A stretch of 46,201 nucleotides of DNA from Synechococcales cyanobacterium (GCA_043739065.1 JAYUEU010000192.1:1-46201), one strand, 5' to 3'; positions 4,592 to 32,859 are shown, counted from the stretch's first letter. A program made the numbers and translations. The notes: generated by a model not told the origin, from the sequence alone.

Positions 4592-5512
4592 TCACTTGGC
4601 ATCATGTGCTTCGACAAGAAACAGAATATTGGTTGCAGTGAGATTCAGTCCATAGCGAGCGATGTATTCTGGAACTATTATTGGGTCTACTCCCTGGCCA
4701 TGTCCACCGTTTTTGTTTCGAAGCGTAGGTACGCCGCTCTCTAATAAAGAGCGATAGGAACTCATTTGTGAATCAAGATATGGCGGGAGTATTCCTTGAG
4801 TTGTACAGATTCGAATTAGTTTACTTGCTGTGTCAGTCGGGTGACTTTCCCACCCGCGAATTTTACAGATAGCCTTCATTGTGCTTTCAAATGCTGCTAG
4901 TGAATTAACTAAACATCCTTTGTGTCTACCATGCCGATAGTGCTCATGAGCAAGTAAGAATTCGTCATTGGCACCCTTGAAGTCTTCGCCAGACAAGAGT
5001 TTTAGCGTAGGCTTTATAGCTTCAGCATGGAGAAATTCAGAATCAATTCGAATAAGCTTACTCGACTCAAATTGATATCCAACACCATTTTCTTTAAAAC
5101 GTTCATTTAAGGTCAAAATAGCATGATCAGGATTAATAGTTCCAGGTGTATGGCCATATAAGAAGGGATACTCATGTCTAATATTGGTATCTATTACCCG
5201 GAAGCATAAATCAATCGCATCCAATACTTGTTCAATTGACTCTTCTTCTAACAGAAACTTTAAGATTGGATAGACATTAGGCAGAGAATATTGAACGAGT
5301 TGTAAGAGTCCATGTTCTCGGCATAAAATATCCTGCACCAGTTCATAGGCATTGTCTTGCCCTCTATTTATACGTCCATGACCAAATGCATCACGAACTA
5401 TATAAGTAATTTGAACGCGTAACTTATGTGGTAACGAATCATAAACATAGACATCAGGAACCTCACCTTGCTCACGGCGCTGACGTTTAGAAAAAAGTTC
5501 AACGACTGTCAT
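4592..5512 (-). CDS. Abi-like protein (STM4504/CBY_0614-type N-terminus, Abi_C-like C-terminus)
   Basis: 306-aa ORF. The N-terminus FSKRQRREQGEVPDVYVYDSLPHKLRVQI and the C-terminal RNKNGGHGQG resemble abortive-infection AbiJ/Abi_C-type proteins, recalled from memory. No CGATCG hexamer is visible in the gene. Confidence 0.5.
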   Translation of the reverse strand: MTVVELFSKRQRREQGEVPDVYVYDSLPHKLRVQITYIVRDAFGHGRINRGQDNAYELVQDILCREHGLLQLVQYSLPNVYPILKFLLEEESIEQVLDAIDLCFRVIDTNIRHEYPFLYGHTPGTINPDHAILTLNERFKENGVGYQFESSKLIRIDSEFLHAEAIKPTLKLLSGEDFKGANDEFLLAHEHYRHGRHKGCLVNSLAAFESTMKAICKIRGWESHPTDTASKLIRICTTQGILPPYLDSQMSSYRSLLESGVPTLRNKNGGHGQGVDPIIVPEYIARYGLNLTATNILFLVEAHDAK

Positions 5513-5755
5513 AAATCTAATGTTTGCTAGTATTACATCTATTCTATAGAGCGATCTGTGTTATTAATAAGTAATTAAATTTTAGTAGCCATTTTTAAAT
5601 CCAAAATTATCATAAATCGGATGGACATTTTTGGGTAGAGAAGACCTCGATCGCACTTTACATTAGCAGGCAGTTACGGAGACAAAAGCCAAGCCCCATA
5701 AGCTACCACATGTACCTCGACCGCTCCAAAAAGATCAATAAACCTAATGTACTTA

Positions 5756-6601
5756 TCAAATCTTACTCAAAATTCCATTCACCCGATCGACCCACACCCC
5801 ATTTCCCGATCGTTGATATTCTGCTTTTGCAAATTCTAAAACTCGTTTTGCTTCAGGATAGTTTTTCTGTTTCAAGAACGTCATCCCAGCACCATAGTAA
5901 GCATTCGCAAACTTTGGATTGAGTTGAGTCGCCGATCGAAACGCCGCGATCGCATTCGACCAATCACCATCACTATACAAAACTGTCCCCAACGCATAAA
6001 ACGCATCCGAATAATTAGGATTCACTTGTACCGCTTTACGAAAGGCCGCGATCGCACCTCGGTTCCATTTTGTCCGTTGATAGGCAAGACCTAAATGATA
6101 GTAAGGCTCAGGAATACCAGGATTTAATTCAGTTGCTTTTTGGAATGAATTCGCCGAACCTTTAACATCACCTTCAATATTTTGAACTAGTCCTAAATTG
6201 TAATAGGCCATTCCAAGCTTTGGATCAAGCACAATTGCTCTAGATAAATACTCCCGCGATTGTTTGAGATTATTACCTTCAAGAAGTGCCGCGCCCAAAT
6301 TGGCATAGGTCAGCGCATAGGTCGGATCAAGCTGAATTGCCTGATAAAAAGCAGAGGCAGATGCTTGAACTTGGCCCGATTGTCGCAGTGCTAAACCTAA
6401 ATTGTATTGGGCTGCAAAGGATTTAGGATTGATCTGAGCGGCGCTAGAAAATGATCCGATCGCACCCGAAACATCACCCGTTTTCACCTGCGTCAAGCCT
6501 TGCTGATATAAACTTTCAAATGATTGTGCAGAAACTGGCAACTGTAATGGCAATTGCAATATAGAAGCTAAAACAAATGCTGCGATCGGAACCCTTTTCA
6601 T
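5756..6601 (-). CDS. secreted TPR-repeat protein
   Basis: 281-aa ORF with an N-terminal signal-like segment followed by about 7 consecutive 34-aa TPR units (A..Y.LG.....G....A...F..A..L.P). Confidence 0.8.
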   Translation of the reverse strand: MKRVPIAAFVLASILQLPLQLPVSAQSFESLYQQGLTQVKTGDVSGAIGSFSSAAQINPKSFAAQYNLGLALRQSGQVQASASAFYQAIQLDPTYALTYANLGAALLEGNNLKQSREYLSRAIVLDPKLGMAYYNLGLVQNIEGDVKGSANSFQKATELNPGIPEPYYHLGLAYQRTKWNRGAIAAFRKAVQVNPNYSDAFYALGTVLYSDGDWSNAIAAFRSATQLNPKFANAYYGAGMTFLKQKNYPEAKRVLEFAKAEYQRSGNGVWVDRVNGILSKI

Positions 6602-23319: not shown

Positions 23320-25704
23320 ATGGAAGATATCAAGCTACATTGTCCTAACCCATTTTGCAAACAGCCTAACGATCGAACGGCTGATTTTTGTTATAGCTGT
23401 CACACCTTTTTACCAAAACGCTATTTGTGGGTAGTGGGAAACGATCGTTCTCGACTTGTTCCTGGGATGGTTTTAGGAAATCGCTATGCAGTTTTAGAAG
23501 AAAATACTCTACTAGATTGTTATCCAGAAAATCCACCGGAAATGCCTGCTGAGATTTTTCTATCCCTGGAAGCCTATTTAAAGCTTAGTCATGCCGTTCC
23601 CCATGCACCCAAGGTCTATTGCATTTTAGAGATTGATGGAAAAGATTGCATTGTTTTAGAAGAGACGGCGATTTATTCCTATGTTATTTCAGTAATTCCA
23701 GAGGACGAGACAACGATCGCACCCAAAGCCGGAACATTAATGCCCATATTGCAAGAATGCTGGGGTTCTGCGAGCAATTTTCGTCTCTTAAATTGGATTT
23801 ATCAGATTGCTACGATTTGGGATAGATTCAAGACTCTTGGCGCTTCACAGACTTTATTTGACCCATATTGTATTCGGGTTGATGGCGGATTAATTAAGAT
23901 ATTAGAGCTTCGTTTTGATTCAAAAGAGACTGTCGATAACACTCTTCCAGTTCTTCTCCAACATTTAATTCATTACAGCGATCGATCGAATCTAAAACCA
24001 GATCTAACGATAATGCGCCGTTTAAGAGAAATATATGAGCGATTGATCCACGAGGCCGAGGAAGATCAAAGTTATCTATTATGCGAATGGCTGGATCAAG
24101 AGATGATCCACCATAGTTCTGGATCACTCGATATTGAAATTGTTACTCAAACGGATCAAGGCCCAAATCGAAAACGTAATGAAGATGCTTGCTATCCTAC
24201 TTCTACCCAAAAAGTAACTATTTCCCGATCGAAATCAACTGATCTAGAAAAACCATTGTTAATTGTATGTGATGGAATTGGTGGTCATGAAGGCGGTAAT
24301 ATTGCATCTAATTTAGCGATCGAAACTTTGACAACTGTATTAGATGCTCGAATTCCTAAAGCGATCGGATATGAAAAAAAGGTTGATACAACTCAAGTTG
24401 TACGAGAAGGAATTCAAATTAGTAACGATGCAATTTCCGATCGTAATGATCAAGAAGGTCGTAGCGATCGACAACGTATGGGAACAACTGTTGTTTTAGC
24501 TAGAGTTGAAGGTCAACGATTACAACTTGCTCATGTTGGAGATAGCCGAGCCTATCGAATTACAGCCCGAGCTTGTTACCAACTTACCGTTGATGATGAC
24601 ATTGCTTCTCGGGAAGTAAGATTAGGCTATACGTTATATCGTGATGCGCTTCAGCGTAGTGGGACGGGTGCATTGACACAGGCATTAGGAATGGTGTCAT
24701 CTTCTCTTCTACATCCAAGAATTCAAACCTCGTTTGTCGATGAAGACTGTATTTATTTACTTTGTTCTGATGGACTGAGTGATTACGATCGGATTGAACA
24801 ATGTTGGGCGCAGGAATTGATTCCGGTATTACAGGGTCGAATTCAACTTGCGGATGCTTGTCAAAGTCTAATTGAAATTGCCAATGCTCATAATGGTCAT
24901 GATAATGTGACGGTTGGATTATTATATTGTCGCGTTCCAGACGAAACCGTACTGTCTAATGGTTCTCCAACTCGATCAACATTACTCCCAATTTGGGGTT
25001 CAAAGTCAAGTGCTAAGTCTAAGCGTAAAGACGATCGTGATTTGAGCCAAGTCCCTCCAACAACAACATCTTCAACTCAATTGGTCGAACCGCATAGAAG
25101 AGGGAAACGATCGCAGGGAACTCAGAAATCCAATGGTTCCCAGGGGCGATGGATTTTTCTGTTTTCCGTTTTGGCCGCCATTGGTGTTGTTACTGGAATT
25201 TTAGTTTTACTATTCAAGCCCGATCGTCAAGTAGAATTGCCAACTCCTGTTGCTATTGCATCGCCGTTCCCAAATGGATTAAAAGTGAATCAGCTTATTA
25301 AAGTTGTACCAGTATTGAATCCAATGTCAACTCCAAGTCCAACGTCTAGTTCAGTTCCAAATTTATCCGCTGTGGGCCAGCCTAGTTCAGAAATTCCAGC
25401 CAATTTAATCCTGGTTCCTAAACCGCCGTCACTTCTCGGGACACCTGTTGAAACCTTTGAAGTGAATGTTGGCGAAGTGGCTCCGGGAGCGGTGATGCGG
25501 GTGGTCGATCGGCAAGTGCGAGGAACAAAGCCTTGGATTAAGCTCCAAATTTGTAGTGTGGCAACGATCGGCGAAACTAAGCAGCTGAAACCTGGTGTTG
25601 AGGGGTGGTATGCCGAGCCAATGTTGTTATCGCAGGTTGTTGCTGTGACATCAGAATTGCCCCCTACTGCGCTTTCTGCTTGCCCTATGTTGAAGTCTAA
25701 GTAA
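23320..25704 (+). CDS. PP2C-family Ser/Thr phosphatase with N-terminal zinc ribbon, an uncharacterised ~240-aa domain, a TM segment and a C-terminal extracytoplasmic beta domain
   Basis: CPNPFCKQPN...CYSCH forms the zinc ribbon. PP2C motifs are RKRNEDAC, VCDGIGGHEGG, MGTTVV, HVGDSRAY, LCSDGLSD and GHDNVTV. The TM segment is WIFLFSVLAAIGVVTGILVLLF. Confidence 0.85.
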   Translation: MEDIKLHCPNPFCKQPNDRTADFCYSCHTFLPKRYLWVVGNDRSRLVPGMVLGNRYAVLEENTLLDCYPENPPEMPAEIFLSLEAYLKLSHAVPHAPKVYCILEIDGKDCIVLEETAIYSYVISVIPEDETTIAPKAGTLMPILQECWGSASNFRLLNWIYQIATIWDRFKTLGASQTLFDPYCIRVDGGLIKILELRFDSKETVDNTLPVLLQHLIHYSDRSNLKPDLTIMRRLREIYERLIHEAEEDQSYLLCEWLDQEMIHHSSGSLDIEIVTQTDQGPNRKRNEDACYPTSTQKVTISRSKSTDLEKPLLIVCDGIGGHEGGNIASNLAIETLTTVLDARIPKAIGYEKKVDTTQVVREGIQISNDAISDRNDQEGRSDRQRMGTTVVLARVEGQRLQLAHVGDSRAYRITARACYQLTVDDDIASREVRLGYTLYRDALQRSGTGALTQALGMVSSSLLHPRIQTSFVDEDCIYLLCSDGLSDYDRIEQCWAQELIPVLQGRIQLADACQSLIEIANAHNGHDNVTVGLLYCRVPDETVLSNGSPTRSTLLPIWGSKSSAKSKRKDDRDLSQVPPTTTSSTQLVEPHRRGKRSQGTQKSNGSQGRWIFLFSVLAAIGVVTGILVLLFKPDRQVELPTPVAIASPFPNGLKVNQLIKVVPVLNPMSTPSPTSSSVPNLSAVGQPSSEIPANLILVPKPPSLLGTPVETFEVNVGEVAPGAVMRVVDRQVRGTKPWIKLQICSVATIGETKQLKPGVEGWYAEPMLLSQVVAVTSELPPTALSACPMLKSK

Positions 25705-25815
25705 GATTTGGATTGATCGTGTAAGACACTGACGTTTAGAAATACTCACATTTAACAATACTCACATTTAGAAATACTATGGAGATCTGTATGCACTTGC
25801 CCGATGTGAGTTTCC

Positions 25816-27447
25816 ATGACCATTCCTTCTCTGAATCTTGCGATCGATCGTCTCCGTGCCACGGGAGTTTGTCATTTTGCGGTACATGTAATTAATGCGC
25901 CTTATCGGGCTGGGTATTTGCTGCAAGATGTTCTGTGGGAAGAAGCGATGGCCCAGGTTTGGGGCGCTTGGCAAGAAATGTTTGCGATGCGATCGGTGCC
26001 CATGGTGCCCTATTTGTCTGGAGTTGTAGTTCACGATCGAGCCGCGATAACCGATAGTCCTGGAAGTGCATTGCCCTATAGTGTTCGATTGATGCAAACC
26101 TTAGGAATTCATCTTTGGCAATGGTTGTTCAGTGGTTCAATTCAAACTGCATTAAATCAAAGTCAAGGGATTGCAATGGGTCGAAATCAGCCGTTGCGAG
26201 TGCGGTTGGATGTGCGGGATCCAGATTTAATTGGAATTCCCTGGGAGATTATGCAAGCTCAAGCCGGAGTGCCTGCGATCTCATTAGGACAACAGGTGTT
26301 GTTTAGTCGAACTATTAGCGATGTTGGTGCATTGCGACCGATGCGATCGGACCAGATGGTGAATGTGTTGGTGGTATTGGGGCAAGATGCAACGATCGCG
26401 AATGGACCCATGACTACTTCACCCCCAAAAACTAGCTCCGAAACTAGTTCCGAAACGAAGACAGTCCGTCTACGCCTTGAACAAGAAGCTGTAGCCCTAC
26501 GTCGGGTGCTAGAAAATGTCAGCCACTTTGCCACAACAGCCGGATGCTTTGTCGATACTTTAGTCCAGCCCACACCCGCCGAGCTGTTGCAGAAGTTGAA
26601 TTCTGGTCGATATAATGTGCTGTTTTATGCGGGGCACGGGGTTCCAGCTCCCGATGGTGGGATGTTGTTTTTGAGTCCGACAGGGACTATGAATGGTACT
26701 GAATTGGCTCAGGTGTTGACGCGGGTGGGGGTGAAATTGGCGGTGTTTAATGCCTGTTGGGGCGCGCTGCCAGATCAACGATCGGGGCAAACGATTCCTC
26801 GGAGCAGTTTGGCAGAAGTGCTGTTGCATCATGGGGTTCCGGCAGTGTTGGCCATGCGGGATTCTATTACTGATGATGAAGCATTAGCCTTTATTCAGAC
26901 GTTTGCTCAAGCGTTGGCGGAACGGTTGTCGATTGATCATGCGGTGGCGATCGCTCGTCAAAATCTATTGACCTTATTCAAATTCAATCAACAAGCTTGG
27001 ACGCTTCCAGTGTTGTATATGCACCCCGAGTTTGATGGAGAATTGGTGAAACCCTTAGCCGAGGGCTTAACTCAAATTCCTATGAACCCCACGCAGTTTG
27101 CTAAACGGGTTGCTGTGGCAGGATTGCGATCGATCGATAAAACTCAGACCTGGATTTTGCGAGGCGGCTTAATGAGTGTGGGAATAAGCGATGAGAATGA
27201 TGTGGTGCTAGACGATCCTGGAGTGTCTCGTCGCCATGCCGAGATATTTTGCCGTGATGGATTCACCAATTCTAATGCGCCGACCTATTTTCTTAAAGAT
27301 TTATCCCGGTATGGGACTTGGGTGCTAGATGCTACGGGTTGGCAAAAAATAAATCACCAGGAAGTACAACTTTTTCCAGGAATGCAGGTGAAGTTTGGGG
27401 GGTCGCAGAATATGGCGATGGAGTTTGTGGTGGATGAAGAAAATTAG
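25816..27447 (+). CDS. CHAT-domain (caspase-like) protein with C-terminal FHA domain
   Basis: YNVLFYAGHG and LAVFNACWGA give the His/Cys dyad of the CHAT/caspase fold. The C-terminal VGISDENDVVLDDPGVSRRHAEI...LKDLSRYGTWV is a canonical FHA domain. Confidence 0.8.
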   Translation: MTIPSLNLAIDRLRATGVCHFAVHVINAPYRAGYLLQDVLWEEAMAQVWGAWQEMFAMRSVPMVPYLSGVVVHDRAAITDSPGSALPYSVRLMQTLGIHLWQWLFSGSIQTALNQSQGIAMGRNQPLRVRLDVRDPDLIGIPWEIMQAQAGVPAISLGQQVLFSRTISDVGALRPMRSDQMVNVLVVLGQDATIANGPMTTSPPKTSSETSSETKTVRLRLEQEAVALRRVLENVSHFATTAGCFVDTLVQPTPAELLQKLNSGRYNVLFYAGHGVPAPDGGMLFLSPTGTMNGTELAQVLTRVGVKLAVFNACWGALPDQRSGQTIPRSSLAEVLLHHGVPAVLAMRDSITDDEALAFIQTFAQALAERLSIDHAVAIARQNLLTLFKFNQQAWTLPVLYMHPEFDGELVKPLAEGLTQIPMNPTQFAKRVAVAGLRSIDKTQTWILRGGLMSVGISDENDVVLDDPGVSRRHAEIFCRDGFTNSNAPTYFLKDLSRYGTWVLDATGWQKINHQEVQLFPGMQVKFGGSQNMAMEFVVDEEN

Positions 27448-27759
27448 AGCAAATTGGATCAGAAATGCATTCAGCACGCTGTTTTGAGCTTAAAACCAAG
27501 TCTTGAATCTATAACTTCTTGACTATAAAAATTACGAAACATCATGAAAGTTGTCGAATTGATTGCAATTAGTTAAGTTCTAATTCATAGTTCAGTAAAA
27601 ATTTGTAAACGAGTAGAAATTATAATGAAGCAACCTACTCGAAATCTACCCGATTTATGGATCCAGGTAAGTTGATGTTTTCTGGTTGATTTTTTTTGTT
27701 GTCTCGGTTTGATGGGTCGATCGAAATTTAGCTCTATTTTTTACTAAAGGGACTTTGCT

Positions 27760-28413
27760 GTGATTTATAGCTGTGATCTGCCAAGTGGCCAAACGCTTTA
27801 TCTTCAAAACCAAGGTGATATGACCAATGCAACGGTATTGATGAAGCAATCGGGGCAACAGCAGCAGTCTGGTAGCAGCGTTATGACGGGAACTTGGCAG
27901 ATTCAGCCGGAAGTCTTTGCGATGGTTGGTGGGGCTGTTGTTCGCTTGACAACCTCGACGGGAGTTTGGTCTTTGATGGTTCAGGGGATGAGTTTGTCGG
28001 TACAGTCGGGTGCGGTAGAGATGGGCAATCAAGTGATGGGATTAACTGTGCGGTCTCAGATGCCAAATGTGGCAAGCAGTTCATTCTCAATGCCGCCTAT
28101 GACACCAATGACCTCTATGCCGCCGATGCCGCCGATGGGGATGAATATGAATCCTATGCAAATGCAGATGGGAAATATGGGGATGAGTATGGGTGGATCA
28201 TTGAGTAGCCAAGCGAGTAGTAATGTGAGTTCTAGCAGTAATTCTGGTGGGAATGGTGCGGCAAGTCTTTCGCGAGATAGCCCTTCACAAGATAGTCCAG
28301 GAAAGGCTTCTGGCAATGTGAAATCGGGCAATGTGAAATTCTGTAGCCAATGTGGGACGGGCGTGAAAGTGGACGATCGGTTTTGTTCGAGTTGCGGACA
28401 TCCGTTGCGCTAA
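27760..28413 (+). CDS. Met-rich protein with C-terminal double zinc ribbon
   Basis: 217-aa ORF (GTG start, uncertain). A 36-aa stretch contains 14 Met (MPPMTPMTSMPPMPPMGMNMNPMQMQMGNMGMSMGG, nt 28090-28197). The C-terminus is FCSQCG...FCSSCGHPL. Confidence 0.6.
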   Translation: MIYSCDLPSGQTLYLQNQGDMTNATVLMKQSGQQQQSGSSVMTGTWQIQPEVFAMVGGAVVRLTTSTGVWSLMVQGMSLSVQSGAVEMGNQVMGLTVRSQMPNVASSSFSMPPMTPMTSMPPMPPMGMNMNPMQMQMGNMGMSMGGSLSSQASSNVSSSSNSGGNGAASLSRDSPSQDSPGKASGNVKSGNVKFCSQCGTGVKVDDRFCSSCGHPLR

Positions 28414-28478
28414 CTATTGCGTTAGATAGCGGTTTCTAGGATTTAGATTATTAGGCCAGTTGGCTAAAGGAGTTTAGT

Positions 28479-29294
28479 TTGCAACATCTACACCGATCGG
28501 AACGAACAGAAATTGAACAATTTTGGACCGCAAAAGTTGCAGCGCTGGGTGCCGAATTGGGCGTGGACCGTCGTCGTGCTGAGCGTCTATTACATCGTGT
28601 GATTCATAACTATCGGAATCCTGTCGAACTCGATCGGTATGGGTTGTCTGAACCTGTGATCGGCGTGGGTGGCGTGATGCACTACGGTATGGATGCTGAG
28701 GTTGAAGATTCTTCTTGGACTATTGGATATTTTTGGCGGGCGGATGGGTTGCCGATTTGGTGTGATCCGCTATTGATAGCAAACGATCGGGGAATTACAT
28801 CTATTGAGTCGGGGCAGGAATTTTCCGATCGGTTGGTGCTGTTGTTGGGGATCAGTTCTGATTTTATGAGTTCTGATTTGACGGTGACAGTTCGCAATGG
28901 CACGTTGTATGTGTTTTTGCCGCCGATCGTTTGCGAGCTTCTGTTTTTAAAAGTGGTTCATGCCATTGAGCTGATCGCTGTATTTATGATGATGCCTGTG
29001 CGACTTGAAGGGTTTGGCCCACCTGTTGGCGACATCATTTGTGGGTTTGAGATTATGCCCGGTTTGGATATTTCTGAAGTCAATATTCATCCAGTTCAGC
29101 CTTGGCCTCAATTGTTGGTGTTTAATTCTATTTTGGAACGATCGGCAATAGCAGTGAAATTGACAATGCAGTTTTCTTGGAATGGCCAATGTTTGGAGCC
29201 AATTGAAGAAGTTGTTCAGACTGGTTTTCCTTCTAGTGTATTTCTGCGATCGGCGACTGAGACTCGATCGCTTCAAAGTGCAGTCACGGCGTAA
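28479..29294 (+). CDS. hypothetical protein resembling a fragment of DUF2126 (large transglutaminase-associated family)
   Basis: 271-aa ORF with a TTG start. LYVFLPP...PVRLEGFGPP.D...EVNIHP...W..L parallels the LH.FMPP...V.LEGY.PP.D...VTPDPGVIEVNIHPA.SW.EL block I recall from ~1100-aa DUF2126 proteins. Confidence 0.4.
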   Translation: MQHLHRSERTEIEQFWTAKVAALGAELGVDRRRAERLLHRVIHNYRNPVELDRYGLSEPVIGVGGVMHYGMDAEVEDSSWTIGYFWRADGLPIWCDPLLIANDRGITSIESGQEFSDRLVLLLGISSDFMSSDLTVTVRNGTLYVFLPPIVCELLFLKVVHAIELIAVFMMMPVRLEGFGPPVGDIICGFEIMPGLDISEVNIHPVQPWPQLLVFNSILERSAIAVKLTMQFSWNGQCLEPIEEVVQTGFPSSVFLRSATETRSLQSAVTA

Positions 29295-29470: not shown

Positions 29471-29911
29471 ATGGATTTTGTAACGCCGTTGTTGGGTTTG
29501 TTGGTGCCGCATTTACCGGGGTTGTTAAAGAAGGCGGCGGAAGATGTTGCGGGGGAAGGCGCGAAGAAGGCTGTGTTTGCGGCGGTGCCTGCGGGGGTGA
29601 AGGCGATTTGGGAGAAGTTGCTGCCGAAGGTCGAGAAAAATCCGGTGGCGAAGGCGAGTGTGGCGGCTGTGGTGGATCAGCCGGAGAATCAGGATTCTCT
29701 TGAGATGCTAAAGCTGGCATTGAAGCAGGTGTTGCAAGGGATCGAGAAGTCGGAACCGGAGTTGGTGGCGGAGTTGCGGAAGTTGATGGATGAGGATAAG
29801 GCGGATGCTTCGGGTGGAAATTCGGCGACAGTAACGGCAGGGACTATTTATAGTTCTGTGGTTGGTGATGGGGCGAATGTGACGCAGACGATCGGTTCTC
29901 CAGAGAAATGA
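29471..29911 (+). CDS. small alpha-helical protein (Bell/HeLo-analogous candidate) with a C-terminal amyloid-type signalling motif
   Basis: 146-aa ORF with a hydrophobic, Gly/Ala/Lys-rich helical N-terminus (MDFVTPLLGLLVPHLPGLLKKAAEDVAGEGAKKAVFAAV...). Its C-terminal 26-mer also occurs at the N-terminus of the next gene. Confidence 0.55.
   Translation: MDFVTPLLGLLVPHLPGLLKKAAEDVAGEGAKKAVFAAVPAGVKAIWEKLLPKVEKNPVAKASVAAVVDQPENQDSLEMLKLALKQVLQGIEKSEPELVAELRKLMDEDKADASGGNSATVTAGTIYSSVVGDGANVTQTIGSPEK
29819..29896 (+). other. C-terminal signalling motif NSATVTAGTIYSSVVGDGANVTQTIG
   Basis: 15 of 26 residues are identical, ungapped, to nt 30226-30303 of the downstream NLR. Confidence 0.7.
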
Positions 29912-29938
29912 ATCTTTGGTTGATCCTATAGAAGACCC

Positions 29939-30081
29939 GATCCCCTAAATCCCTCTTGAGAAAGGGGGACTATGAGAAGAAGGGAAATTATTGATGGAGA
30001 TGTGGTTTGCTTCTTTGATCTTCTCTTTCAATTTTATTTCTTAGTATCCGGTTCCCCCTTTTTAAGGGGGTTAGGGGGATC
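29939..30081. mobile_element. MITE-like hairpin element (GATCCCCTAA ... TTAGGGGGATC termini)
   Basis: The terminal inverted repeats each contain an internal hairpin (CCCTCTTgagAAAGGGGG and CCCCCTTtttAAGGGGG). The element sits in the spacer between the two partner genes. Confidence 0.5.
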
Positions 30082-30180
30082 GAGTTTATTGCAATAACCG
30101 ATCGAATCATTCAATCATTCAATTATTCAGTTCAATTATTCAATTCATCCATTCAATTTTGTATTTCTGGACATATTGTT

Positions 30181-32340
30181 ATGACGATCGTAAATCCCGA
30201 TGATAATCTCAATCTATCTGCAAAGAATTCCGCGAATGTGAATGCGGAAACAATCTACAGTTTGATCATTGGTGACAATGCGACGGTGAATCAGCAGATT
30301 ATTCAGCAGCAACGAAAAAGGAGGTTGTTTCAGCTTGCGGAGGACAGTCCTGATTTTACGGGCCGATCGCAGGAAACGGAAACTATTGAGAAGATTTTGA
30401 AGGGTGATTCTCCGACGGCGATGATTTCGGTGGTGTCGGGGATGGGCGGGGTGGGGAAATCGATGTTGGCGCGACATGTGGGAAATCGGTTGAAGGCGCA
30501 GTTTCCCGATGGACAGCTTTATGTGGATTTGTTGGGGCAGTCGGATACTTGTCGATCGGCGGATTCGGTGTTGGTTGAGTTTTTGGTGGATGGGTTTGGG
30601 GAAGATCCGCAGCATTTGCCGTTTGAGTTGGATGCGTTGCGGAAGTTGTTTCACGATCGCCTTTCTGGTTGCAAGATTTTGGTGGTGTTGGATAATGCGG
30701 GGGATGCGCTTCAGGTGGAGCCGTTGTTGCCACGGGTGCGGGGGTGCGGGGCGATCGTGACGAGTCGGGAGCCGTTGATGAATTTGGCGGGGATGACGGC
30801 GGAGAATTTTGTGTCGTTGGATGTGATGACGGAGGGGGAGGCGACGGAGCTTGTTCAACGGTTGTGTCCTAAGAAGACGGTGGATGTTGGGTTGGTGAAA
30901 TTGTTGGTGGGGCTGTGTGGGCGGTTGCCGTTGGCGTTGACGATCGTGGGGAAACTTTTGCTTCAGACGGCTTCGTTGACGCTGGTGGAGGTGATGGCGG
31001 AGTTGTCTAAGGAACGATCGCGGTTACGTGCGTTGAAGTATGTGGGAAGTGATAATCAGGTGGATGCTCGGTTGGATGTGGAGGCGAGTTTTAATTTGAG
31101 CTATGTGCGGTTGAATGAGTCGCAGCGGGGACTTTTTGAGGCGGTGGCACTGTTGCGGGGACGAGATTTTGGGCGGGAGTTGGCGGCGGTGATGGTGGGC
31201 CGGGAGGAGGCTGAGGTGCGGCGGGAGCTAGATCAGTTAGTGGCGTTGCAGTTGGTGCAGTGGGAGGTGGGGCGTTATGGGTTTCATGATTTGGTGCGGG
31301 AGTTTGGACGGGGGAAGCTGGGGGCGGAGCGGGAACAGGCGCTGACGGAGGTGGCGTTGGGCTGGTATGTGGCGATGGCGGATCAGATGAAAAAACTGTT
31401 GCTAACTGATGAATCGGTTGCAGTTAAAATGGCAATTCAGCAGTTTGAATCAGAGTGGCAAAATTTATTACAAGCAATTACGTGGTCGTCAGAAATCAAG
31501 GAAAATTCGTCAGCTATCAAGCTTTTTCAAGATGTTCAGTATTATGCGTCGTTGCGAGGATTCCGTACTCAACAATTGTTAGAAGTAGGTTTTCAGACGC
31601 TAACAACTGCTCAATTAATCGGCGATCGAGTGGGAGAAGCGAATACGTTAAAAGCGATCGGCGATGTATTGCAATTTCTAGACCAGCGTCAGGATGCGTT
31701 AAATCGATATGAAACGGCGATGGAGATTTATCGTCAAGTGGGCTCTCGACTGGGAGAAGCGAATACGTTAAAAGAGATCGGCGATGTATTGCAGTTTCTA
31801 GACCAGCGTCAGGATGCGTTAAATCGATATGAAACGGCGATGGAGATTTATCGTCAAGTGGGCGATCGACTGGGAGAAGCGAATACGTTAGACAGTTTTG
31901 CCTTAGCAAATTTTTCTGGTGAGAACTATTTGAAAGCGATTGAATGTCACCAGCAAGCACTCGACATTTTTACACTGATTGAATCTCGATATGATATTGC
32001 TTGGTCACTACGATATTTAGGAAAAGTACATCTCAAATTAGGTGATTCATGGAAAGCAAAGGAATTCTTTGAGAAAGCCGCCACACTTTTTGAAGCTTTA
32101 GAAATGGACGATTCAGCTCAAGCTTGTCAGCAGGAAATCAAAAATCTCAATCCAAATATCGTACCCGGCACCTTACCCAAAGCACCCAACATTAGCGACG
32201 ACCTCACCCCCCGCAAGAAAAAGCCACAGTTTCCCCTTTGGCAAAGTGCGATCGTCCTTCTGGTGTTGGGCATTGGCTGGCTAGCCATCAAACCCCATGC
32301 TCCCGCGCCGCAGAATGGTGAAGTGAGACAGGCGAAGTGA
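30181..32340 (+). CDS. NB-ARC STAND NTPase (bacterial NLR) with N-terminal amyloid-type motif, TPR sensor repeats and a C-terminal TM segment
   Basis: Walker A GMGGVGKSMLA, Walker B KILVVLDNA, RNBS-B-like AIVTSRE, GLPL motif CGRLPLAL and MHD-like FHDLVREF. About 6 TPR-like 40-aa units (GEANTL..IGDV....) follow, then the tail FPLWQSAIVLLVLGIGWLAI. Confidence 0.85.
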   Translation: MTIVNPDDNLNLSAKNSANVNAETIYSLIIGDNATVNQQIIQQQRKRRLFQLAEDSPDFTGRSQETETIEKILKGDSPTAMISVVSGMGGVGKSMLARHVGNRLKAQFPDGQLYVDLLGQSDTCRSADSVLVEFLVDGFGEDPQHLPFELDALRKLFHDRLSGCKILVVLDNAGDALQVEPLLPRVRGCGAIVTSREPLMNLAGMTAENFVSLDVMTEGEATELVQRLCPKKTVDVGLVKLLVGLCGRLPLALTIVGKLLLQTASLTLVEVMAELSKERSRLRALKYVGSDNQVDARLDVEASFNLSYVRLNESQRGLFEAVALLRGRDFGRELAAVMVGREEAEVRRELDQLVALQLVQWEVGRYGFHDLVREFGRGKLGAEREQALTEVALGWYVAMADQMKKLLLTDESVAVKMAIQQFESEWQNLLQAITWSSEIKENSSAIKLFQDVQYYASLRGFRTQQLLEVGFQTLTTAQLIGDRVGEANTLKAIGDVLQFLDQRQDALNRYETAMEIYRQVGSRLGEANTLKEIGDVLQFLDQRQDALNRYETAMEIYRQVGDRLGEANTLDSFALANFSGENYLKAIECHQQALDIFTLIESRYDIAWSLRYLGKVHLKLGDSWKAKEFFEKAATLFEALEMDDSAQACQQEIKNLNPNIVPGTLPKAPNISDDLTPRKKKPQFPLWQSAIVLLVLGIGWLAIKPHAPAPQNGEVRQAK
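30226..30303 (+). other. N-terminal signalling motif NSANVNAETIYSLIIGDNATVNQQII
   Basis: It matches the C-terminal motif of the upstream 146-aa ORF (NSA.V.A.TIYS...GD.A.V.Q.I). Confidence 0.7.
31621..31890 (+). repeat. 2.25 copies of a 120-bp in-frame tandem repeat inside the TPR region of the NLR
   Basis: 31621-31740 and 31741-31860 differ at 6 of 120 positions, and their second halves are 60/60 identical. 31861-31890 starts a third copy. Confidence 0.95.
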
Positions 32341-32402: not shown

Positions 32403-32624
32403 ATGACTTCTCTCACCGAGATTGAAACCGCCATTAGCCGTCTATCTGAACCCAACGTTCGACAGCTTGCTGATTGGTTACAAAACTATCTCAACGATCG
32501 CTGGGATAACCAAATTGAATCAGACGTTGCATCGGGTCGATTAGACGCCCTCATTGCTAAAGCCGAAGCCACGATCGATAACAACCCCGTGAGAAGTCTA
32601 GATGAAGTCCTTTACAACGGTTGA
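32403..32624 (+). CDS. putative type II antitoxin
   Basis: 73-aa ORF overlapping the downstream toxin-like ORF by 23 nt. Pattern: L.E.....LADWL.......WD.QIE.D..SGRLD.LI..A. Confidence 0.55.
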   Translation: MTSLTEIETAISRLSEPNVRQLADWLQNYLNDRWDNQIESDVASGRLDALIAKAEATIDNNPVRSLDEVLYNG

Positions 32625-32859
32625 TTTTTGGCAAGCTTACAATCAACTCTCACCCGACGTAAAAGCAAAGACTCAGAAAGCTTACCAACTCTGGCAAAAC
32701 GATCTAACCCATCCGTCACTTCACTTTAAGAAAGTAGGTAAGAACTTATGGTCCAGCCGAGTGAGTAGTAATCATCGAGCTTTAGCCCTGAAGAAAGGTG
32801 ACGATTACTAGTGGATTTGGGTAGGCACTCATGATGAATACGAAAAGTTGTTAAATTAA
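32602..32859 (+). pseudogene. RelE/ParE-superfamily-like toxin interrupted by an in-frame TAG
   Basis: The ORF ends ...ALALKKGDDY-TAG(32809-32811), but the same frame continues WIWVGTHDEYEKLLN-TAA(32857-32859). That continuation is the conserved C-terminus (W.WIG.H.EY..LL) of this toxin family. Confidence 0.55.

Follow-up and report, generated by a model that had tools for sequence, protein, structure and literature searches.

A probable amyloid-signalling gene pair of the Bell/NLR type in a Synechococcales cyanobacterium and the concerted replacement of its matching terminal motifs

The DNA analysed here is a stretch of 46,201 nt from a Synechococcales cyanobacterium (GCA_043739065.1, JAYUEU010000192.1:1-46201), referred to below in its whole length as the window. 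Between positions 29471 and 32340 it contains two genes which an earlier note, made from the sequence alone, had singled out as a candidate amyloid-signalling cell-death pair: a small open reading frame (ORF) of 146 amino acids (aa), called the effector gene in the following, and downstream of it a gene for a NOD-like receptor (NLR) that carries an NB-ARC domain together with TPR repeats. Both genes are on the + strand and the spacer between their ORFs measures 269 nt. The genes and the motif that is found in both products are located as follows.

29471-29911, + strand: small effector gene, 146 aa (ORF call)
29471-29812, + strand: helical domain of the effector, residues 1-114 (AlphaFold2 prediction)
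29819-29896, + strand: effector-side motif of class A, NSATVTAGTIYSSVVGDGANVTQTIG, residues 117-142 (sequence coordinates)
30181-32340, + strand: NB-ARC/TPR NLR-type receptor gene, 719 aa (ORF call; Pfam)
30226-30303, + strand: NLR-side motif of class A, NSANVNAETIYSLIIGDNATVNQQII, residues 16-41 (coordinates, BLASTP, shuffle score)

When the two proteins were aligned, the effector tail NSATVTAGTIYSSVVGDGANVTQTIG and the NLR leader NSANVNAETIYSLIIGDNATVNQQII were identical at 15 of 26 positions without a gap, and recomputation thus returned the terminal match of the earlier note. This 26-residue stretch was the sole significant similarity between effector and NLR (BLASTP, E = 2e-6); the runner-up had an E of 2.6, which agrees with the previous statement that the two proteins resemble each other nowhere else. 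The local alignment score of the motif was 81, compared with 19.9 +/- 4.0 for shuffled sequences, and none of the 5000 shuffles reached 81 (maximum 50). When all 46 kb of the window were scanned in six frames, the motif rose above background at the effector and NLR sites only, the next score being 34. N, Q, G, V, I, T and S account for 21 of the 26 residues on the effector side and for 19 of 26 on the NLR side, in line with the richness in N/Q/G/T/V that had been noticed before. K and P are absent from both 26-mers, which together contain a single L; the effector-side copy is devoid of K, P, L and R, with T, G, V, S and N being abundant. This is the composition of the bacterial amyloid signalling (BASS) motifs, in which Q, N, G, V and I are enriched and K, P and L depleted, and which were described as families BASS1-10 from Bell/NLR gene pairs (Dyrka et al., 2020, bioRxiv 10.1101/2020.01.06.895854). 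Database searches with the NLR leader or the 42-aa tail as the query gave no useful matches.

The receptor contains the following elements.

30382-30981, + strand: NB-ARC nucleotide-binding domain (Pfam, motifs)
30439-30462, + strand: P-loop GMGGVGKS, residues 87-94 (sequence motif)
30676-30696, + strand: Walker B ILVVLDN, residues 166-172 (sequence motif)
30919-30939, + strand: GLPL-type GRLPLAL, residues 247-253 (sequence motif)
31282-31290, + strand: MHD-like FHD, residues 368-370, beyond the NB-ARC domain (sequence motif)
31594-32130, + strand: TPR sensor repeats (Pfam, repeat scan)
32212-32289, + strand: RKKK and the predicted C-terminal transmembrane (TM) anchor FPLWQSAIVLLVLGIGWLAI, residues 684-703 (hydropathy)

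The nature of this protein, previously recognized by eye as NB-ARC with TPR repeats, was borne out by Pfam, which placed an NB-ARC domain at residues 68-267 (E = 1.2e-12, above the cut-off) and TPR_12 repeats further on (E = 1.6e-26). The P-loop, Walker B, GLPL-type and MHD-type motifs were all located and follow each other in the order expected for an NB-ARC STAND NTPase. Part of the TPR region consists of a 120-bp tandem repeat (31621-31890, 2.2 copies, 95% identical), and the length of orthologous NLRs ranges from 719 to 944 aa. The hydrophobic segment FPLWQSAIVLLVLGIGWLAI has a Kyte-Doolittle mean of 1.9 over 19 residues and is kept in the NLRs of three related loci (L001, L009 and L017) that represent three motif classes. 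The hydrophobic segment behind the predicted C-terminal TM helix to which attention had been drawn is real and conserved; the remark that it looks unusual has to be softened, since C-terminal TM segments have already been described for some clades of bacterial NACHT proteins (Kibby et al., 2022, bioRxiv 10.1101/2022.07.19.500537).

The effector is predicted to be a helical bundle with six helices within residues 4-114 (AlphaFold2, alignment of 112 relatives). The confidence score pLDDT is 85-94 over most of the helical domain; the tail (residues 115-146) is predicted to be disordered, with a pLDDT of about 50. The N-terminus, MDFVTPLLGLLVPHLPGLL, opens with M-D and continues as a hydrophobic helix, a feature known from descriptions of the Bell, HeLo and MLKL domains; the helix MDFVTPLLGLLVPHLPGLL is presumed to be the one that attacks the membrane. 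P13, L15, P16, L18, W47 and P71 are nearly invariant in the 112 family members. The effector has 66 close homologues with 49-78% identity, and an exhaustive phmmer search of 1.8 billion representative proteins yielded 157 relatives at E <= 1e-3. Among the matches listed nearly all are 130-160 aa long and have a common N-terminal pattern, which consists of M-D/E, a hydrophobic helix with an LAPxLPxL signature, and then conserved W and P residues. The tails of the relatives are variable and rich in G/N/Q/T/V. Some are BASS6-like (VTASGERSVAIGG..TGD; published BASS6 is ASGERSIAAGGNIGVAITGDG), and the tail of relative P0046, NIEMNGESYDQSSFKQVGKIQADKV, resembles the published BASS10, IAMNATAYDNSTVKMVGKIEADTV. 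In other relatives (P0108) the helical domain is fused to an NLR. The relatives with BASS6- or BASS10-like tails or with an NLR fusion were found by phmmer at E = 1e-5 to 1e-8, the match spanning the helical domain.

According to their published description, Bell domains measure about 120-140 aa, begin with a helix that is hydrophobic, have an acidic amino acid as residue 2 or 3 and are occasionally fused to an NLR. The effector, with 146 aa, an N-terminal domain that is predicted to be all-helical, a first helix of hydrophobic character and D as its second residue, corresponds to this. Measured against that description, its membership of the Bell family is probable and has good, though indirect, support. 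Pfam, NCBIfam and PADLOC returned no family match for the effector, so that its assignment to an unrelated family of known function, which had been foreseen as a possible refutation of the cell-death proposal, did not occur; a Pfam EAD10 match was obtained for one of the 112 relatives. BAB74123.1 and BAY68044.1 (relative P0081) are absent from Table S2 of Dyrka et al. (2020), and a metagenome scan with the alignment of the close family found no locus. Relatives P0109 and P0131 carry the helical domain at the C-terminus of CHAT-like (caspase-like) proteins, and in P0127 it is accompanied by an extra C-terminal TM segment.

For a comparison of the two terminal motifs 26 related loci were collected; three emerged from a survey in which each species was represented by a single genome, and the contigs of 12 of the 66 close homologues supplied the others. 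The effector gene is full-length in 24 of the 26 loci (the tail is truncated in L022 and L023). All are cyanobacterial and, where named, belong to 'Synechococcales' metagenome-assembled genomes. The helical domain is conserved throughout the loci, but the tails fall into at least four unrelated classes, here called A-D.

Class A: tail ..TVTAGTIYSSVVGDGANVTQTIG (window); NLR leader TVSADTIYSSVIGNNAIVNQTIV
Class B, which has sub-types: tail ..DVKARDIYGLAQGDRATQTFNFG; NLR leader DVVKARDIYGLIQGDHAQIENNFYG
Sub-type B3: NLR leader SVDGNVFGLQQGNGNVQNFHF versus DVNARDVYGMQQGDGNNQAFNFG
Class C: tail ..STIVNVDGTDNQALVNVTAKNVVAKVEGGANFH
Class D: tail ..NIDVKGDENQTTGINHGKTVRMGAVTGDVNL; NLR leader GKENLNVGINNGTIS versus GDENQTTGINHGKTV

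Each tail class was found to be paired with the corresponding leader on the adjoining NLR. For ten distinct pairs of classes A-D the mean tail-to-leader score was 59 within a class and 26 between classes, and when one pair from each of six cassettes was taken, the true pairing was the single best of 720 permutations. The termini of orthologous pairs, a mismatch of which would have told against the cell-death proposal, thus match in every motif class and switch together. The occurrence of at least four unrelated classes, each with a match in the partner, indicates that selection for matching is required.

The motif class is decoupled from the remainder of both proteins. Identity of the effector helical domain is 70% within classes and 68% between them, and that of the start of the NB-ARC domain is 61% and 66%, respectively; for the effector tail it is 66% within and 31% between classes. 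Effectors with different tails are up to 98-99% identical in residues 1-105 (P0209 versus P0175, P0182 versus P0185), and the helical domain of the window is 93% identical to that of the class B protein P0152. The DNA of L006 (class B) and that of L011 (class D) share 96.4% identity along 4.3 kb that end at about codon 107 of the effector, cannot be aligned over the following approximately 375 bp, and are again 96.8% identical from the PRKASLFQLP box of the NLR onwards. A comparable pattern of breaks was observed in L002/L011, L004/L024 and window/L024. L024 is syntenic with the window (Zn-ribbon gene, DUF2126-like gene, effector, NLR) yet belongs to class B; its homology with the window stops at nt 29800, and the window counterpart of the PRKASLFQLP box, RKRRLFQL, starts at nt 30313. 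The exchanged segment of the window is given by these homology breaks.

29801-30312, + strand: specificity cassette, comprising effector tail, spacer and NLR leader (homology breaks between haplotypes)

The cassette measures approximately 375-400 bp and its flanks are 89-98% identical between haplotypes. Cassettes are replaced between haplotypes, and at either of two chromosomal sites more than one type of cassette is in circulation. Because tail, spacer and leader are replaced as one unit, both partners switch together. The replacement as such is shown by the sequences: in natural cyanobacterial populations at least four mutually unrelated motif classes are exchanged wholesale, presumably through recombination in the conserved flanks. 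That selection maintains this polymorphism is a further proposition, offered tentatively as one that we consider on balance doubtful. No description of cassette replacement between near-identical haplotypes was found in the consulted part of Dyrka et al. (2020).

The relation of classes A-D to BASS1-10 was examined with short k-mers and with 56 example sequences (BASS1-10 and unassigned pairs), which served as a proxy for the profile hidden Markov models of the original authors. Fifteen 3- and 4-mers from the four classes were looked up in the table of 346 published pairs (Table S2); nine were absent, and the remaining six were confined to rows of BASS2, 6, 7 and 9 and to BASS3-like rows without assignment, no row among these being similar as a whole to classes A-D. 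Classes A-D have no 4-mer in common with the 346 pairs. Against the 56 examples the class A tail alone exceeded shuffled sequences: it scored 47 with its best outside match, the unassigned BASS3-like Streptomyces motif SAVVGDTAHVEVTV, where shuffles gave 30 +/- 4; the NLR-side class A motif was not above shuffles in the same comparison. Provisionally, the class A motif may be regarded as a further family or as an outlier of BASS3, the comparison having been made with examples. The ending 'TFNFG', which class B has in common with BASS7, was considered as a sign of a link and discarded, as the spacing is off by four residues and the score lies at background. The tails and leaders of all classes had no Pfam RHIM match even at E <= 10 and no other Pfam match. 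With RHIM, BASS3 and the fungal PP motif, class A has in common that it is short and has a central hydrophobic-x-hydrophobic-G-D core; unlike these it reads VVGD/IIGD in the core and lacks the (I/V)-Q-(I/V)-G tetrad.

Like the pairs of Dyrka et al. (2020), the pair in the window comprises a helical effector (about 120-150 aa) whose N-terminal helix is hydrophobic and whose second residue is acidic, and a collinear adjoining NB-ARC/TPR gene, in a cyanobacterial host; in both cases a motif some 25 aa long, in which N, Q, G, V and I abound, is placed at the C-terminus of the effector and the N-terminus of the NLR; the BASS6- and BASS10-like tails of its relatives also connect the window effector with them. 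The window differs in its spacer of 269 nt with a hairpin, most published pairs being <=10 bp apart or overlapping, and in an NLR that ends in a predicted membrane anchor. A second system, Bab/Agp of Escherichia coli ECOR25 (BASS11), has recently been characterized: amyloid signalling activates a Bell-related domain, which leads to abortive infection, and the amyloid conversion, demonstrated directly, a relocation to the membrane and a dependence on the N-terminal helix were reported (Ibarlosa et al., 2024, bioRxiv 10.1101/2024.11.07.622273). Like Bab/Agp, the window pair combines a small helical Bell-related effector with a C-terminal motif that is matched at the N-terminus of the adjoining sensor, and it adjoins defence-type genes; in addition, the 'MEPIS'-type N-terminal helix region of Bab resembles MDFVT of the window effector. 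Bab has 109 aa, whereas the window effector has 146. The sensor is also of another type, since the window NLR has no GreA/B or PIN match in Pfam and is an NB-ARC/TPR protein.

The arrangement is likewise that of HET-S/NWD2 (Podospora anserina, HRAM), where the N-terminal motif of the NLR matches the C-terminal region of a membrane-targeting helical effector that is encoded by the adjoining gene. In HET-S/NWD2 the NLR motif templates the prion-forming region of the effector, and motif subfamilies co-evolve in pairs. The window pair does not belong to that system, which is fungal, with a NACHT/WD NLR and a HeLo effector that has two motif pseudo-repeats, whereas the class A tail has one; Pfam found no HeLo or Het-s match in the window proteins. 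A STAND NTPase, a repeat sensor and, in some clades, a C-terminal TM segment are also found in the bacterial NACHT/STAND antiphage proteins (Kibby et al., 2022). In those proteins the effector domains are fused in the same chain, in contrast to the NB-ARC NLR of the window and its separate effector, which would be recruited through the common motif.

Seen against these systems, the two genes in the window quite likely form a module of the Bell/NLR type for regulated cell death, in which amyloid templating takes place between NLR leader and effector tail. Those predictions of the earlier note that lend themselves to computation were all borne out. The sequences themselves show the domain architecture of both proteins, the need for tail and leader to match, and their exchange within one cassette. 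Templating, membrane attack and a defence role are proposed by analogy with the published work on BASS, Bab/Agp and HET-S/NWD2; the role of the module would probably be abortive infection. The NB-ARC/TPR protein would act as the sensor, its TPR array detecting a ligand. Upon detection, oligomerization driven by the NB-ARC domain would cluster the N-terminal leaders (residues 16-41), which would then take up a cross-beta, amyloid-like fold and template the matching disordered effector tail (residues 117-142). Conversion of the tail may free the N-terminal hydrophobic helix from the bundle and so lead to membrane damage. The C-terminal anchor of the NLR would place the nucleation at the membrane.

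The main rival explanation, which is distinctly less likely, is that the common motif is a non-amyloid docking element. Tail and leader would then pair one to one, for instance by beta-strand augmentation, or both would bind in a pocket of the TPR array, and the NLR would hold and later release the effector with no templated polymerization. Co-variation and cassette exchange show only that the segments must match and not how they interact, and a tail that is predicted to be disordered also suits a docking peptide. TPR domains commonly bind short extended peptides. Such a TPR pocket would, however, need to accept the unrelated classes A-D, since the cassette is swapped and the NB-ARC region behind it is 89-97% identical. 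Moreover, the composition of the motif (rich in N, Q, G, T, V and I, no K or P) and its length of about 25 residues are reported traits of BASS motifs, and relatives of the effector have BASS6- and BASS10-like tails. Docking further has to be set against the published behaviour of other motifs of this kind: BASS1 and BASS3 form fibrils and prions, the NLR side converting the Bell side, and amyloid conversion has been shown directly in the homologous Bab/Agp.

It is very improbable that the similarity of the termini is a functionless by-product, be it of compositional chance, local duplication or a split Bell-NLR fusion that left remnants, with the 146-aa ORF being independent of the NLR. Direct fusions of a Bell-type domain to an NLR do exist (P0108), a mobile-element-like hairpin lies between the genes, and some related loci have decayed; yet a split fusion cannot produce two copies of the motif, none of 5000 shuffles attained the observed score, and at least four unrelated classes each keep the match with the partner. 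That the effector is the precursor of a ribosomally made modified peptide (RiPP), with the NB-ARC/TPR protein as an accessory or regulator in the manner of HaaT-type RiPP TPR proteins, can hardly be credited: RiPP precursors do likewise combine a conserved N-terminus with hypervariability at the other end (in the effector, a tail of about 35 aa), and the NLR has an NCBIfam match to HaaT (231 bits, below the cut-off of 1125), but neither this match nor that to AfsR comes near its cut-off and both reflect the shared NB-ARC/TPR architecture only, a modifying enzyme, protease and exporter are absent beside the pair at all genomic sites seen, and an NLR N-terminus that copies the variable tail would be left unexplained. 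On these grounds the last two explanations are rejected.

Several points weigh against the assignment of the pair to Bell/NLR amyloid signalling. The evidence for membership of the Bell family is indirect and comes from features of the relatives. A Foldseek comparison of the AlphaFold2 model of the helical domain with the PDB gave no match at E < 1 (best E = 2), and a sequence profile of the 112 family members gave nothing but noise against PDB sequences; a link to the HeLo, MLKL or Bab fold is therefore not supported by structure. According to Ibarlosa et al. (2024) the folds in the Bell-related superfamily vary widely. Class A is without a convincing match to the BASS1-10 examples, and amyloid formation by its motif is inferred. 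Finally, some of the related loci are decayed, with a split or truncated NLR, a class C leader without a canonical start or an orphan effector, which means that some copies are not functional.

Turning to the related loci individually, the NLR of L004 is broken up into two ORFs, one of 226 and one of 259 aa (L004 4618-6043), and that of L011/L012 is shortened to 195 aa, a 488-aa gene on the opposite strand being in its place (4624-6538). L021 has a class C effector without an adjoining NLR, and the loci with a truncated effector tail, L022 and L023, have no NLR. In class C the open NLR frame takes in a leader whose match to the class C tail is weak (PTIVNNSGHGAQIFPDLRAGTFIGKYV; L003 4496-4611, L009 4448-4563 and L010), and no ATG, GTG or TTG occurs before the GTG that precedes QRKASLFQ; this is identical in three independent assemblies. 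Either translation begins at a rare start codon, or the leader is silenced. A short ORF 3' of the NLR in L001 (6905-7195) repeats the C-terminal anchor of the NLR (..LAIVLLLLGIGWKAMNSQAPV..QQERGK) and, from its sequence, looks like the leftover 3' end of another NLR copy; similar NLR leftovers are found downstream in L011.

The spacer between the two genes contains an inverted-repeat element of about 150 nt; the element that the earlier note had taken for a miniature inverted-repeat transposable element (MITE) between the partner genes is thus real.

29933-30087, no strand: MITE-like hairpin element with terminal inverted repeats of about 40 nt (inverted repeats, fold)
L001 3355-3470, L004 4459-4572 and L019 4462-4612: the hairpin in relatives

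Its predicted fold has an energy of -75 kcal/mol (z = -2.1). The terminal repeats are nearly invariant among the window, L001, L004 and L019, the four distinct loci of class A, and the interior varies in length and sequence among class A loci. The spacers of classes B and D carry another palindrome, CCCCCAATTCTGGGGG. Just 5' of the NLR start an AT-rich tandem repeat of ATTCAAT-type units with periods of 13 and 21 is present (window 30101-30167), as it is in L019. Rfam gave no match in the spacer, and promoter and terminator scans remained at chance level.

Directly 3' of the NLR two small overlapping ORFs are found (window 32403-32811), the second with a weak match to a ParE-like toxin, and in related loci HicA/HicB, HigB and DUF433/DUF5615 genes adjoin the pair. 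Toxin-antitoxin neighbours are in keeping with the cell-death reading and suggest a setting that resembles a defence or addiction island. Upstream (window 23320-29294) lie a large ORF (23320-25704), genes for a HetF-like CHAT+FHA protein and for a Zn-ribbon protein, and a DUF2126-like fragment of 271 aa. L004 has a PP2C phosphatase gene at the matching positions, followed by CHAT+FHA, Zn-ribbon and DUF2126 genes, and L005 and L024 retain the Zn-ribbon and DUF2126 genes. As the effector/NLR pair occurs without these upstream genes at other sites, they are probably not part of the module. Between 27000 and 36000 of the window the GC skew of the + strand is unusually strong (0.21-0.37, with a dip at 32-33 kb); genes are on both strands.

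The pair in the window can be classed as a further instance of the known bacterial amyloid-signalling (Bell/NLR) systems and not as a new kind of system. Such pairs were reported from cyanobacteria and actinobacteria in 2020, and for a related pair it was demonstrated in 2024 that amyloid templating underlies its action in phage defence, so that one more pair is unsurprising. What the locus and its relatives add are motif classes that appear to lie outside BASS1-10, provisionally and as compared with examples, and an NLR that is predicted to be anchored in the membrane, where the effector would be expected to act. The most interesting addition is that cassettes of no fewer than four motif classes replace one another in a concerted way. 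Should this polymorphism be kept up by selection, avoidance of cross-seeding between paralogous death pathways or escape from amyloid decoys encoded by phages would be plausible causes. If true, the cassette polymorphism would correspond, in bacteria, to idiomorphic recognition loci, and nature would have provided a set of amyloid signalling 'wires' that are orthogonal to each other. Near-identical scaffolds on which four or more partner-matched motif classes have been exchanged naturally would offer a ready test of the sequence specificity of amyloid templating, that is, of which leader seeds which tail. The biological role of Bell/NLR pairs was described as still to be elucidated (Ibarlosa et al., 2024), and this question might be brought closer to an answer with a cyanobacterial pair that is compact and has clear allelic variants.

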